From assembly GCA_963838285.1 (NCBI GenBank), contig CAWIQP010000008.1:88686-152685 (forward strand): a DNA stretch of 64,000 bases, in the 5' to 3' direction. The notes under the pieces are model-generated. The model was given only the letters and a program-made list of their open reading frames with translations. It had not been told where the DNA came from and ran no database searches. Below are positions 60,696 to 63,846 of the stretch, one piece after another. How positions within the stretch are numbered: position 1 is the stretch's first letter; each line of letters starts with the position of its first letter. The translations under genes and the position numbers were made by a program. This DNA comes from an uncultured Chloroflexia bacterium (GTDB lineage: Bacteria > Chloroflexota > Limnocylindria > Limnocylindrales > CSP1-4).

Positions 60696-60941
60696 TCAGG
60701 TCCCGGGCGAGTTCGCGGACCGGTCTCCCCGGACGCGTCCGAGCAGAAAGCCCAGCGCGATGCCGAGTCCGAACACGGCGGCCGCGGTCGCGAGCTCGCG
60801 ACGCCAGGTGAGTCCGAAGCGGGCCGTCAGCCGCAGATACCAGAGCGGGGGGTCGGCGTAGTAGACCTGGTCGACTCCGAACTCGGCCGCGAGCTTCGCC
60901 TTCTCCTCGGCGTGGCGGTCGTGACGGTGAAAGAGCTTCAC
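60696..60941 (-). CDS. hypothetical small membrane protein
   Basis: GTG start at 60939-60941 with AGGAGA 7 nt upstream. 81 aa with a C-terminal TM helix (AAAVFGLGIALGFLLG). Confidence 0.5.
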   Translation of the reverse strand: MKLFHRHDRHAEEKAKLAAEFGVDQVYYADPPLWYLRLTARFGLTWRRELATAAAVFGLGIALGFLLGRVRGDRSANSPGT

Positions 60942-61078: not shown

Positions 61079-61792
61079 CTACCCGGCCGGGTTTGGTTTC
61101 AGGCTGCAGAGCAATGTGCCCGTTCCGACCGCAGTGCGGGTGCCGTCCGTCGCCGTGACGACTACCGTCTGGTCGGTCGTCTGGTAGACGCCGTAGCCGT
61201 CGACGCAGTTCTCCAGGCCGTTCCAGGCGAAGTTCCCGGACCCATCGGCAGGTGTGGTGGTGCCGTAGATGTAGCCGCCCCACGCGTAGGACCAGCTGAT
61301 CGTGATGGGACCGGCGCTGAAGCCAGACCCGCTCACATACGTCGGCAGCCAGTTGTTGTAGCCGAGTGCCGGGCCACTGGAGAACGTCACCGTGGGGCCG
61401 CCCGTGATGGCGACCGCCGTCGGTGAGCTCGTTGCGGTCCAGGACTGCCAGACCGCGGTCGCAGTGTATGTGTAGGTGCCGTTGGACAGCCCGTTGTCGG
61501 TGCAGGTGAGGACCGAGGTCGGCGCGGCCTGGGTCGGGCAGTCGCCGGCGGGGTTCCCGCCGCTTCGCTGCACGTAGTACAGGACGGAGCCCGACCCCGG
61601 TGGCGTGACCGCGGTCCACGCGAGGTTCGCCGTTCCGGCGCCCGCGCTGCCGCTGAGTGCTGGAGCGGCGAGCGTTCCGACCGCGCCACTGCCGCTACCG
61701 ACACCGGTCGCCGTCCAGTGAGCAGTGGCGCCGCCGACCATGACCAGCGCCAACGTCAGGCCGCCCAGCATCGACAGCCACGCGTTCTTCAC
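61079..61792 (-). CDS. secreted protein with a SipW-cognate-type (TasA/camelysin-like) signal peptide, FN3-like body
   Basis: ORF 61079..61882. Likely GTG start at 61792 (VKNAWLSMLGGLTLALVMVGGATAHWTATG; compare the TasA signal ...GGGTWAAF). Gly/Thr/Ser-rich beta-type domain with two Cys. Confidence 0.55.
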   Translation of the reverse strand: MKNAWLSMLGGLTLALVMVGGATAHWTATGVGSGSGAVGTLAAPALSGSAGAGTANLAWTAVTPPGSGSVLYYVQRSGGNPAGDCPTQAAPTSVLTCTDNGLSNGTYTYTATAVWQSWTATSSPTAVAITGGPTVTFSSGPALGYNNWLPTYVSGSGFSAGPITISWSYAWGGYIYGTTTPADGSGNFAWNGLENCVDGYGVYQTTDQTVVVTATDGTRTAVGTGTLLCSLKPNPAG

Positions 61793-61830
61793 GAACGGCG
61801 GCGTGCGCTTCGCGGAAACGGCCGCCGCGT

Positions 61831-62463
61831 TCACGAATGGGCACTTCCGCTGTATGTGAGGGCGAAGCTCTTGTTCTTGCACACGTCCTGGTTCACGCCG
61901 GGCAGGTTGAGGAGCGTGATCTGCGGCGCGCCCGGTGCGCGCGTGAGTGCCACGCTGCCTTTCGCCGGGATGGTTACCGGGTTAGCGGCCGATACGTTCG
62001 ACTGCGTGAGCCGAACGTTGCTCGCGGTGGTGCAGCCCGGTGGAGTACTGTCCGCCGCAATCGCGACGGTCAGGCTCGTCACGACAACCGGCACGCCGTT
62101 CGGGTTCGTGAGGGTTAGCCGAATGGGCGTCGAAACACCGAGCATCAGGTTGCCCACCCCGCCCGCGATGGTGAAGGCCGAGCCGCCGACCTGAGCCACG
62201 TCGCCTCCGCTGCCGGCCACTGTGGGCGATGGCGTCGCCTGGACCAGCACGCCCTGGACGATCTGAGTGCCGGCGGCGGTAGGCACGGCCGGCGACGCCG
62301 GCGTGACCGACGGCGTGCCCTGCGGGACAGCCTTGGGTTCCCCGAGCAGCAGGCCGATCGAGAGCCCGCCGAGCGTGAACGGAAGCAGAAGCAGGAGAGG
62401 GAGCAGCAGGGCGCGGCGCCTCCTGTCCTTGTTGCGGTCTCTGCCGTTGGGCTCGCCCATCAC
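61831..62463 (-). CDS. secreted protein, second member of the TasA-like trio
   Basis: 210 aa: N-terminal RRRALLLPLLLLLPFTLGGLSIGLLLGEP, body related to the third member (…TSLTVAIAADSTPPGCTTASNVRLTQ..., C-terminal NQDVCKNKSFALTYSGS). Confidence 0.5.
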   Translation of the reverse strand: MMGEPNGRDRNKDRRRRALLLPLLLLLPFTLGGLSIGLLLGEPKAVPQGTPSVTPASPAVPTAAGTQIVQGVLVQATPSPTVAGSGGDVAQVGGSAFTIAGGVGNLMLGVSTPIRLTLTNPNGVPVVVTSLTVAIAADSTPPGCTTASNVRLTQSNVSAANPVTIPAKGSVALTRAPGAPQITLLNLPGVNQDVCKNKSFALTYSGSAHS

Positions 62464-62493
62464 CTGCGTGACATCCTCTCGAGCTTCCCCCGA

Positions 62494-63027
62494 CTAACTG
62501 CCTGTAGGGCGACCCTGTTCAGGGCCGCCCTCATCGGCAGTCGGGGTTACGGGACCGAATAGGCGAGGTTGACCGTCGCGCCCTTGCAGGCATCCTGGTT
62601 CGACGCCTTGTCGTTGAACTTGATCTGCGGGCCGCTCCAGGCTTCCCACGCCGGTCCCGGCCAGGATCTCGGCGTTCACGGTTGCCTGCGTCGGCGAGAG
62701 CGTGAAGTCGGTGGGGTCGCAGGTTCCAGAAGGTGCCCCGGCCGCTTTGGTGACCGAGACGATGCTGACGGTCACGGTAGAGATATAGACCGGGCCGGCG
62801 TTCCCGTTGTCGAAGTCGCCGCTGAGCGTCTGGGCGTTGCCACCCGGGTACATCGGGCTGAGCGCGGGGCGGTCTCGTGGACGACGACGTTGACTACCGT
62901 TACCGGCGCTGGCGGTTCCAGTGCCGGACCCGCTCGCCGTCCAGAACGCATAGGCGACCCCGCTGGCAGCGACAACCGCCAGCAGACCGATCGCCAGCGG
63001 AAGGAGCAGCCGCTTCTTCATCCTCAT
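62494..63027 (-). CDS. secreted protein with a SipW-cognate-type signal peptide (TasA-like), first gene of the trio; frameshifted
   Basis: AAAGGGGAGAAG RBS then MRMKKRLLLPLAIGLLAVVAASGVAYAFWTASG. The body (GDFDNGNAGPVYISTVTVSIVSVTKAAGAPSGTCDPTDFTL) parallels gene 2. The C-terminus is probably in another frame (AWEAWSGPQIKFNDKASNQDACKGATVNLAYSVP*, TAA at 62547-62549), and there is a short out-of-frame stretch near 62870-62895. Confidence 0.55.
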   Translation of the reverse strand: MRMKKRLLLPLAIGLLAVVAASGVAYAFWTASGSGTGTASAGNGSQRRRPRDRPALSPMYPGGNAQTLSGDFDNGNAGPVYISTVTVSIVSVTKAAGAPSGTCDPTDFTLSPTQATVNAEILAGTGVGSLERPADQVQRQGVEPGCLQGRDGQPRLFGPVTPTADEGGPEQGRPTGS

Positions 63028-63323: not shown

Positions 63324-63846
63324 TCAGCCTCCCAGAGCGAACCGCTCCGCGACCGTCCACGACCCCTCCTCCTCGCTACCGACCATCAGCCAGACTTGGT
63401 CGACCGAGGATCGAATCGGGAGACCCGGCGTGACCTCCGCCTCGGCGACGGCGATCTCCTCGAGCGTGGCACCGGCGGCGATCGAGAGATGCGGGATCAC
63501 CTCGCGAAAAGACCCTCCGTAAGGCGGGTAGTCTGGGAACTCCCGCACGATGATTCTCGGTCAGGGTGCGAAAGGGTCCGTCTGGCGACGGCGCAAGATA
63601 CAGGACTTGGTTGCCAAAGCGGCGAGGTCCCACGAGCGAGAAGGCGAACGGCTCCGCCCCGCCCACCAGGGTTCGCAGGCGAGAAACCGCGCCGGCGTCG
63701 ACGGTCTCCGGCGGCGCAAATGGATAGACCAGGGTGATGTGTGCGGGAATGCCCCAGCGCGCACTCCGGTCCAGCTGCCAGCGCCACGAGCCGACGAGTT
63801 GCTCCGCCGCAGGGACCGGGACGATCAACGCGCTCAAGGTTGGCAT
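63324..63846 (-). CDS. 2H phosphoesterase superfamily protein (LigT / 2'-5' RNA ligase-like); one frameshift
   Basis: ORF 63376..63846 (MPTLSALIVPVPAAE...GIPAHITLVYPF: first H-x-T motif) continues after an A-homopolymer frame change near 63540 into ORF 63324..63548 (...REFPDYPPYGGSFREVIPHLSIA: second H-x-S motif). Confidence 0.6.

Follow-up and report, generated by a model that had tools for sequence, protein, structure and literature searches.

Near one end of the 64,000-nucleotide (nt) stretch of contig CAWIQP010000008.1 analysed here (assembly GCA_963838285.1; hereafter the window), three consecutive minus-strand open reading frames (ORFs), found by ORF calling over its 64 kb, span positions 61079-63027. 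We name them g1, g2 and g3 in order of transcription, so that gene 3 of an earlier, sequence-only reading of this DNA (the original prediction) is g1 and its gene 1 is g3. All three proteins carry an export or anchor segment at the N-terminus, and the operon of secreted proteins proposed at the outset is supported as a co-transcribed set of genes whose products are secreted or lie at the cell surface. The locus is an ordinary example of a widespread cassette, uncharacterised and without curated annotation, whose small subunits probably form a divergent branch of the TasA superfamily and which could encode a surface fibre assembled by donated beta-strands.

The start of g1 is an ATG at 63027, preceded by a good Shine-Dalgarno sequence (AAGGGGAG), and its true stop is the TAA at 62549-62547; g2 starts at GTG 62463 or ATG 62460 and ends at 61831 (Table 1). 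A gap of ∼84 nt thus separates g1 from g2, and the GTG start of g3 at 61834 overlaps the g2 stop by 4 nt (GTGA), rather than the 30-50 nt between genes that had been reported because a frameshifted ORF and an internal ATG were used. Orthologous loci share this layout (a gap of ∼87 nt, then a 4-nt overlap). Scans of the cassette locus against Rfam and for promoters and terminators returned no matches.

Table 1. Features of the cassette in the window and, where a locus is named, in related loci
Feature	Coordinates	Strand	Basis or remark
g1, small subunit (proposed major)	62547..63027	-	ORF translations, intact ortholog P0035, alignment A1, AlphaFold2 model
g2, anchor paralog, 210 amino acids (aa)	61831..62463	-	ORF and paralogy to g1
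g3, 251 aa	61079..61834	-	ORF; Sec-type signal, tag, FN3 and second Ig-like beta-sandwich
g1 N-terminal tag, A25-Y-A / F-W-T-A-S-G-S-G-T-G37	62917..62955	-	Predicted signal-peptidase site and conserved mature N-terminus
g3 N-terminal tag, A36-T-A / H-W-T-A-T-G-V-G-S-G-S-G50	61685..61729	-	Predicted cleavage after A-T-A
Span of the three single-base indels breaking the g1 frame	62640..62900	.	Comparison with L007
g2 homologs with LPxTG/LAxTG (examples)	L060 10556-11224; L037 10500-11159; L039 10604-11272; L043 10532-11176		Five more loci
Cassette, PilZ-like gene and tasA-sipW operon	L001 10791-14047; L003 10822-14079; L019 8243-10358		

The g1 protein starts MRMKKRLLLPLAIGLLAVVAASGVAYA and has a Sec-type signal peptide (residues 1-27) ending A-Y-A, after which the mature chain opens with FWTASGSGTG, part of a conserved segment around the cleavage site that we call the tag. 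Its body, which contains two invariant cysteines and ends in NQDACKGATVNLAYS, is a 7-strand beta-sandwich in the AlphaFold2 (AF2) model (mean predicted local distance difference test score, pLDDT, 84; core >90), where the tag is disordered. g2 has no aromatic tag and instead an N-terminal membrane anchor: an Arg-rich N-terminus and a transmembrane helix (∼62341-62412), followed by a Pro/Ala/Ser/Thr linker and a g1-like beta-sandwich (∼61834-62178) whose end is NQDVCKNKSFALTYSGSAHS. In g3, the Sec-type signal (...LALVMVGGATA) ends A-T-A and leads into the tag HWTATGVGSGSG; its body comprises a fibronectin type III (FN3) domain, recognised by its fold, and a second immunoglobulin-like (Ig-like) beta-sandwich. 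The kinship that had been noticed between the bodies of g1 and g2 is confirmed by BLASTP (E = 4e-5, 32% identity over 94 aa, including PxGC...NQDxCK...YS) and by profile-profile comparison of the g2 domain with g1 (98.8% probability, E = 5e-17).

As deposited, g1 (P0037, 177 aa) reads through to 62494, and its conserved continuation (...VTVVNVVVHET...) and conserved end (...WSGPQIKFNDKASNQDACKGATVNLAYSVP*) are encoded in the two remaining frames. The frame problems flagged by the original prediction are therefore present in the deposited sequence, as three 1-nt indels whose mending yields a protein of 159 aa, but they look like an assembly artefact rather than biology. Relative to L007, a contig 98.95% identical to window positions 64000-52551 over 11.4 kb with 19 gap openings, the g1 indels fall at ∼62900 (+1), 62869 (-1) and 62640 (+1), in short homopolymer contexts. 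Gaps outside g1 break a 2H phosphoesterase/2'-5' RNA ligase-like gene, RpiB and triose-phosphate isomerase (TIM; at least 8 indels), with examples in the window at 63552, 58279, 57877, 57823, 55866-55504, 55129, 54922 and 53804. In L007 all of these genes are intact, the three others being called with Pfam domains and g1 (P0035, 159 aa) being 93% identical to the reconstructed window protein. Because a relative of 99% identity is free of the three indels and housekeeping genes in the window are broken alike, they are almost certainly assembly errors. That g1 is instead a pseudogene in this organism, and the cassette non-functional, would fit the three frameshifts of the deposited gene; we regard such decay as highly improbable, given the equivalent 1-nt indels in the neighbouring genes, their absence from L007, the homopolymer contexts, and the intact g2 and g3 beside a g1 that otherwise closely matches P0035. 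Contig names of the form 'contig_N' and titles of Microflora Danica metagenome-assembled genomes (MAGs) suggest that the assemblies come from long reads, and the indels between 52551 and 64000 look like uncorrected error of that kind, which will affect any ORF-based reading of the 64-kb stretch.

Homologs of g1 occur in at least 408 confirmed stretches of 185,579 species-representative genomes, and among representatives of 50%-identity clusters, 3234 match g1 at E ≤ 1e-3 and 1263 of them at E ≤ 1e-10; a set of 5.8 billion proteins holds more than 457 homologs of g1 and 34 of g3. The carriers are Chloroflexota and Actinomycetota, including Solirubrobacterales, Nocardioides, Arthrobacter, Paeniglutamicibacter and Microbacteriaceae; they amount to hundreds of species from soil, peat and freshwater, cultured ones among them (including Nocardioides, Arthrobacter, Paeniglutamicibacter and Agrococcus). 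A plasmid collection contained no g1 homolog. Despite this abundance in Actinomycetota, the suggestion that the locus could be actinobacterial is wrong for this window: the closest genome locus (88% identity) is that of Chloroflexi bacterium fen_1019, and other close ones belong to MAGs of uncultured Chloroflexia and Candidatus Limnocylindrales, so that the window most likely derives from a Limnocylindria-like member of the Chloroflexota. Among the best 80 loci, the sole title from another phylum is a Sphingomonas paucimobilis MAG (L075, CALRVO020000014.1), in which the g1 locus is probably a binning contaminant.

To define the cassette, we annotated the best 80 of the at least 408 loci with 10-kb flanks and iterated hidden Markov models (HMMs), and took counts from the 74 non-redundant loci that extend far enough downstream. 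In both Chloroflexota and Actinomycetota, g1 is recurrently followed by g2, in many cases by another small paralog (g1'), and then by a g3-like gene. A g2 is found in 47 loci, g1' in 38, one or the other in 61, and a g3-like gene in 63. Composed of FN3/Ig repeats, the g3-like partners vary in length between 253 and 2252 aa, with a median of 627; g1' is clearly related to g1 in profile-profile comparison (99.6% probability, E = 1e-24). All-against-all clustering of every ORF in the cassette loci revealed no further conserved neighbour, and in Pfam and NCBIfam searches no curated model covers g1, g1', g2 or g3.

Nine Actinomycetota homologs of g2 carry an LPxTG or LAxTG motif, a hydrophobic stretch and an Arg tail at the C-terminus; those of Arthrobacter, Paeniglutamicibacter and other Actinomycetota end in this way with an RRRR tail. 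These are sortase sorting signals, which make some g2 homologs sortase substrates, and the anchor subunit there would be wall-linked rather than membrane-anchored.

The feature that unites g1, g1' and the g3-like partners is the tag, with the consensus [A]x[A], cleavage, (Y/F/H)(W/F)(T/S)xxGxGxG. It is present in 79 of 83 g1 homologs, in 50 of the 63 g3-like partners and also in g1', and was never seen in g2. In an alignment of 40 diverse g1 homologs (A1), conservation is at least 90% at A25, A27 and W29 and complete at G33, G35 and G37, at the PG of a PGD motif, at the two cysteines and in the C-terminal NQD.C...V.L. The strings AASGVAYAFWT (g1) and VGGATAHWTAT (g3), from which an aromatic motif in at least two of the signal peptides had been proposed, are present as stated, and the motif in these two proteins is conserved far beyond chance. 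Conservation reaches position +10 past the cleavage site, with glycines at i, i+2 and i+4. Because a peptidase site alone needs no such extent, this pattern points to a function of the tag in the mature protein; the alternating glycines could present a strand face free of side chains, fit for a tight groove.

In some g3 orthologs the tag is replaced. The orthologs P0020-P0025, with bodies ∼47% identical, open with SLA(L/V/R)FTS, a SipW-type signal of the canonical kind that scores above the TIGR04088 cut-off, and the two kinds of sequence converge again at GTLAA. The same g3 body thus occurs with either the tag or a TasA-type signal, and the N-terminal module is therefore exchangeable. FN3 + Ig orthologs with an SSLALFTS signal in place of the AYWT-GxGxG tag are encoded at L088 353-1078 and L089 566-1474. 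In L089, a truncated TasA-like N-terminal fragment of 58 aa (RRDRRRRRGLPALL...) lies directly upstream of the g3 ortholog; the other g3 orthologs with TasA-type signals, also on short contigs, stand alone. That the type of tag on g3 matches its fibre partner is weakly supported.

The original prediction had likened at least two of the signal peptides to the class processed by SipW-type signal peptidases. Neither TIGR04088 (cut-off 19 bits) nor TIGR04089 (cut-off 60 bits) matched the intact g1 ortholog P0035 or the window g2 and g3 even at E ≤ 10, and positive controls drawn from the same lineages passed TIGR04088 (P0021 19.5 bits, P0331 20.7, P0388 20.4). The sites in g1 (AYA/F) and g3 (ATA/H) are of the A-x-A type; alanines at -3 and -1 form an ordinary signal peptidase I site. 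As originally stated, the window holds no SipW-like peptidase (tblastn; 63 kb on one side of g1). The suggestion that one might lie in the flanks was followed, and the adjoining 9.4 kb, seen by proxy in the 99% identical L007, contained none. These absences and the A-x-A sites are findings that the original prediction had itself named as refuting it, and its SipW-cognate reading fails for this locus. Nor is a SipW encoded within 10 kb in ∼64 Actinomycetota loci or in most Chloroflexota loci, and a relaxed HMM and catalytic-motif (xxSMxP) search of the 80 loci recovered only six known Limnocylindria-type loci, its other motif matches being unrelated proteins.

SipW occurs nearby (within ∼3 kb) only in three related Chloroflexota lineages (L001/L009, L003-5 and L019), where a divergent PilZ-like gene comes after the cassette and, beyond it and ∼2 kb from the cassette, a canonical operon encodes a TasA-family protein (PF12389, 42 bits), SipW (NF046067, 87 bits; SipW-type model TIGR02228, 90 bits against a cut-off of 51.85 bits) and a further secreted protein of 231 aa. 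The PilZ-like gene might encode a cyclic di-GMP (c-di-GMP) receptor. With the two adjacent, these lineages would have two fibre-type systems side by side, and the region looks like a biofilm-matrix island. The proximity of this operon, the pairing by hhalign of AYAYWT with the SLALFTS of TasA-family signals, and the true TIGR04088 signals of some g3 orthologs could be taken to mean that proteins with the tag are recognised by a SipW-type peptidase dedicated to them, which would be encoded outside the window and provide the only route to maturation. We consider this unlikely: the nearby SipW belongs to the separate canonical operon, which has its own TIGR04088-type substrates, the HMMs that recover the controls miss g1, g2 and g3, searches of the window downstream of g1, of L007 and of the Actinomycetota flanks turned up no SipW, and the A-x-A sites suit the general signal peptidase.

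The further claim that the protein bodies resemble TasA and camelysin holds in part. PF12389 (Peptidase_M73; gathering score 22.5 bits) does not match the window g1, g2 or g3 at E ≤ 1. The L001 ortholog of g1 reaches 20.4 bits (E = 5e-4), below the gathering score, 23 of 40 family members match at E ≤ 0.1 (best E = 1.3e-5), and a few relatives carry a precomputed match (P0038, P0047, P0049, P0083). For profile comparison, homologs of the PF12389-positive gene that neighbours the cassette in L001 were aligned to represent bona fide TasA-family members (A4). The g1 alignment matches it by hhalign (89.7%, E = 1.9e-6) over the signal and N-terminal ∼60 columns only, pairing the signal, the tag region (AYAYWT vs. 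SLALFTS) and the PGD motif. The g1' family matches A4 (85.8%, E = 5.3e-6) along the full mature domain (137 columns), with PGD, NxN/NxG, a cysteine and the C-terminal CQGAtftV vs. yQGAtttTFTF among the aligned features. The profile-profile comparison of g2 with A4 was not significant. When the g1 model was compared by Foldseek with 350,542 PDB chains, the TasA fibre 8aur_A ranked first (E = 4e-3, probability 1.00, template-modelling (TM) score 0.42), and the lower matches included the donor-strand pilins CfaB and PapD/PapG (PapG pilin domain) and cannulae; a PDB sequence-profile search with the g1 alignment gave nothing meaningful. We conclude that g1, g1' and g2 quite probably constitute a miniature, highly divergent branch of the TasA superfamily. 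A remote resemblance to TasA is thus supported for g1 by these PF12389, hhalign and Foldseek signals, and for g2 by paralogy, but does not extend to g3, with its FN3 and Ig-like body. A camelysin-type protease was rejected as an identity for these proteins, which have no metal-binding motif and very few histidines, and type IV pilin-like signals were rejected since the motif follows, rather than precedes, the hydrophobic segment.

Arg-rich n-regions are found both in g2 (∼62412-62463; DRRRRALLL) and in the canonical TasA-family proteins of this lineage (A4 consensus RRxRRRRRGLLALL), and are reminiscent of twin-arginine signals. This resemblance matters because the pilins of haloarchaeal Tat-fimbriae (Tafi) switch between the Sec and the twin-arginine (Tat) pathways.

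Several known systems invite comparison. In TasA, the donor strand comprises residues 28-38, directly after the SipW cleavage site, and TapA, which shares or mimics the TasA N-terminus, nucleates the fibres (PMC9674648). Like the TasA/TapA/SipW system of Bacillus subtilis (PF12389, PDB 8AUR), the cassette encodes a secreted beta-sandwich subunit with a conserved segment right after the cleavage site and an accessory protein sharing that segment (TapA there, g3 here); remote sequence and fold signals connect the two, and the PGD...NxG motifs and C-terminal QGA strand align in g1'. In contrast to TasA, the mature subunit measures ∼130 aa (vs. ∼230 aa), the tag reads (Y/F)WTxxGxGxG and fails TIGR04088 (vs. 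AFNDIKS), two cysteines are invariant and sipW is absent; the cassette, known here from sequences and models, also has a membrane- or sortase-anchored paralog, of which the tapA-sipW-tasA operon has none.

In organisation, the cassette also resembles the Tafi system, a haloarchaeal Tat-dependent bundling pilus of the TasA superfamily (TafA/E pilin, TafF anchor, TafC tip, TafD peptidase; PMC12337348, PMC11821415), whose loci encode the anchor TafF, with a transmembrane helix and jelly-roll, and the tip protein TafC (PMC12337348). Both systems have a small pilin, a proposed anchor with one transmembrane helix and a pilin-like jelly-roll, and a multi-domain tip protein, and the architecture of g1, g2 and g3 agrees with a Tafi/Abp-type locus, the comparison with Tafi being drawn from its description (PMC12337348) and not from sequence. 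Tafi is, however, archaeal and mostly Tat-dependent, with a dedicated signal peptidase (TafD/TafG) and a regulator, whereas the cassette uses Sec-type signals and conserves neither peptidase nor regulator. The archaeal bundling pili AbpA/AbpB, whose structure has been solved, belong to Thermoproteota and differ in subunit size and operon; AbpA has no dedicated peptidase (PMC9245690).

Sortase-assembled Gram-positive pili are likewise cell-wall-attached in Actinomycetota, and the nine g2 homologs bear a sortase motif. Unlike those pili, the cassette has no sortase gene, and g1 lacks a pilin-motif lysine and E-box architecture. Direct reading of the window g1, g2 and g3 translations found no LPxTG, and a sortase pilus was rejected on that ground. 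The clusters of conserved neighbours contain no sortase either; in some lineages the enzyme appears to serve solely for attaching the base subunit.

By analogy with these fibres, the cassette could be a self-contained donor-strand surface fibre with a major subunit, an anchor and a tip, built from miniature divergent TasA-superfamily subunits, a proposal that we hold to be evenly poised. As in TasA, AbpA and Tafi, strand donation would build a thin fibre: each g1 subunit would polymerise by lending its tagged N-terminal strand to the beta-sandwich of the one that follows. g2, able to accept a strand but without a tag to donate, would be the cell-proximal anchor and terminal acceptor, and g3 would plug onto the fibre through the same tag as an initiator or tip adaptor, like TapA for TasA. 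Removal of the signals would fall to the housekeeping signal peptidase I, or else to a SipW encoded at another site; the cassette includes no peptidase of its own. This model draws on the conserved make-up of the cassette, the size of the family, the remote link to TasA, the extended conservation of the tag, its exchange in g3 orthologs and the published precedents, and on two further observations: g2 is a paralog of g1 that lacks the tag and has an anchor (a transmembrane helix here, a sorting signal in the nine Actinomycetota loci), and the tag is common to an abundant small subunit and to highly variable FN3/Ig-repeat proteins.

Several points weigh on the other side. No filament has been seen for any family member. 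The g1 model is a complete-looking 7-strand sandwich in which an open groove is not apparent and the tag is disordered (pLDDT <50, residues 27-35), and the putative donor segment is Gly/Ser-rich, not hydrophobic. All signals of TasA homology are, moreover, sub-threshold (hhalign 86-90%, PF12389 under its gathering score, TM score 0.42). Such points leave room for a non-filamentous complex, in which g2 would tether one or a few copies of g1, together with g3, to the membrane or wall, the ensemble serving as an adhesin or as a structural module of the envelope, without polymerisation and with the tag as a recognition or retention motif. We think this rather improbable, as it leaves unexplained why a free secreted subunit, an anchored paralog devoid of the tag and variable partners that bear it are conserved together, why the glycines of the tag have a beta-strand-like periodicity, and why the best Foldseek neighbour is TasA in its fibre form.

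If the donor-strand model is carried to its full extent, the cassette might, more tentatively, specify a 'plug-and-socket' pilus that is independent of chaperone and peptidase and has previously gone unrecognised in monoderm Actinomycetota and Chloroflexota. In such a pilus, a miniature TasA-like subunit would polymerise via a Gly-x-Gly-x-Gly N-terminal donor strand, a tag-less paralog would fix the fibre to the membrane or, via sortase, to the wall, and any protein (250 to >2000 aa of FN3/Ig repeats) that gains the 12-residue tag could be mounted on it. Exchange of the tag for a TasA-type signal would then re-target the same cargo to a canonical TasA fibre.

Donor-strand fibres of the TasA superfamily are a recently recognised matrix principle common to bacteria and archaea, and those characterised come from Bacillota and archaea. 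Although no curated Pfam or NCBIfam model exists for the cassette described here, it comprises more than 3000 sequence clusters from hundreds of Actinomycetota and Chloroflexota species. Fibre formation is so far an analogy; if borne out, it would give abundant environmental monoderms a major surface structure not recognised before, reveal how small a TasA-type subunit can be and provide a simple modular tag for the display of adhesins. If no fibres are built, a widespread unannotated surface-protein module with a clear hypothesis attached is still in hand.

In the window lineage, the flanks differ from those of the relatives with SipW close by and encode a 2H phosphoesterase, HAD hydrolase, Fe-ADH, RpiB, Dak and TIM. 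An 81-aa minus-strand ORF with a C-terminal hydrophobic segment (60696-60941) lies ∼140 nt downstream of g3 and is kept in L007 (11466-11711); elsewhere it falls outside the cassette. A phage-integrase fragment is located ∼2 kb upstream of g1 in L007 (6887-7309), past the window end and hence seen by proxy. In L006, the next closest relative with downstream sequence (g3 87% identical), similarity to the window stops right after g3, where an unannotated 152-aa ORF follows (L006 2152-2610). The cassette lies in a variable region, with flanks that change from one close relative to another.

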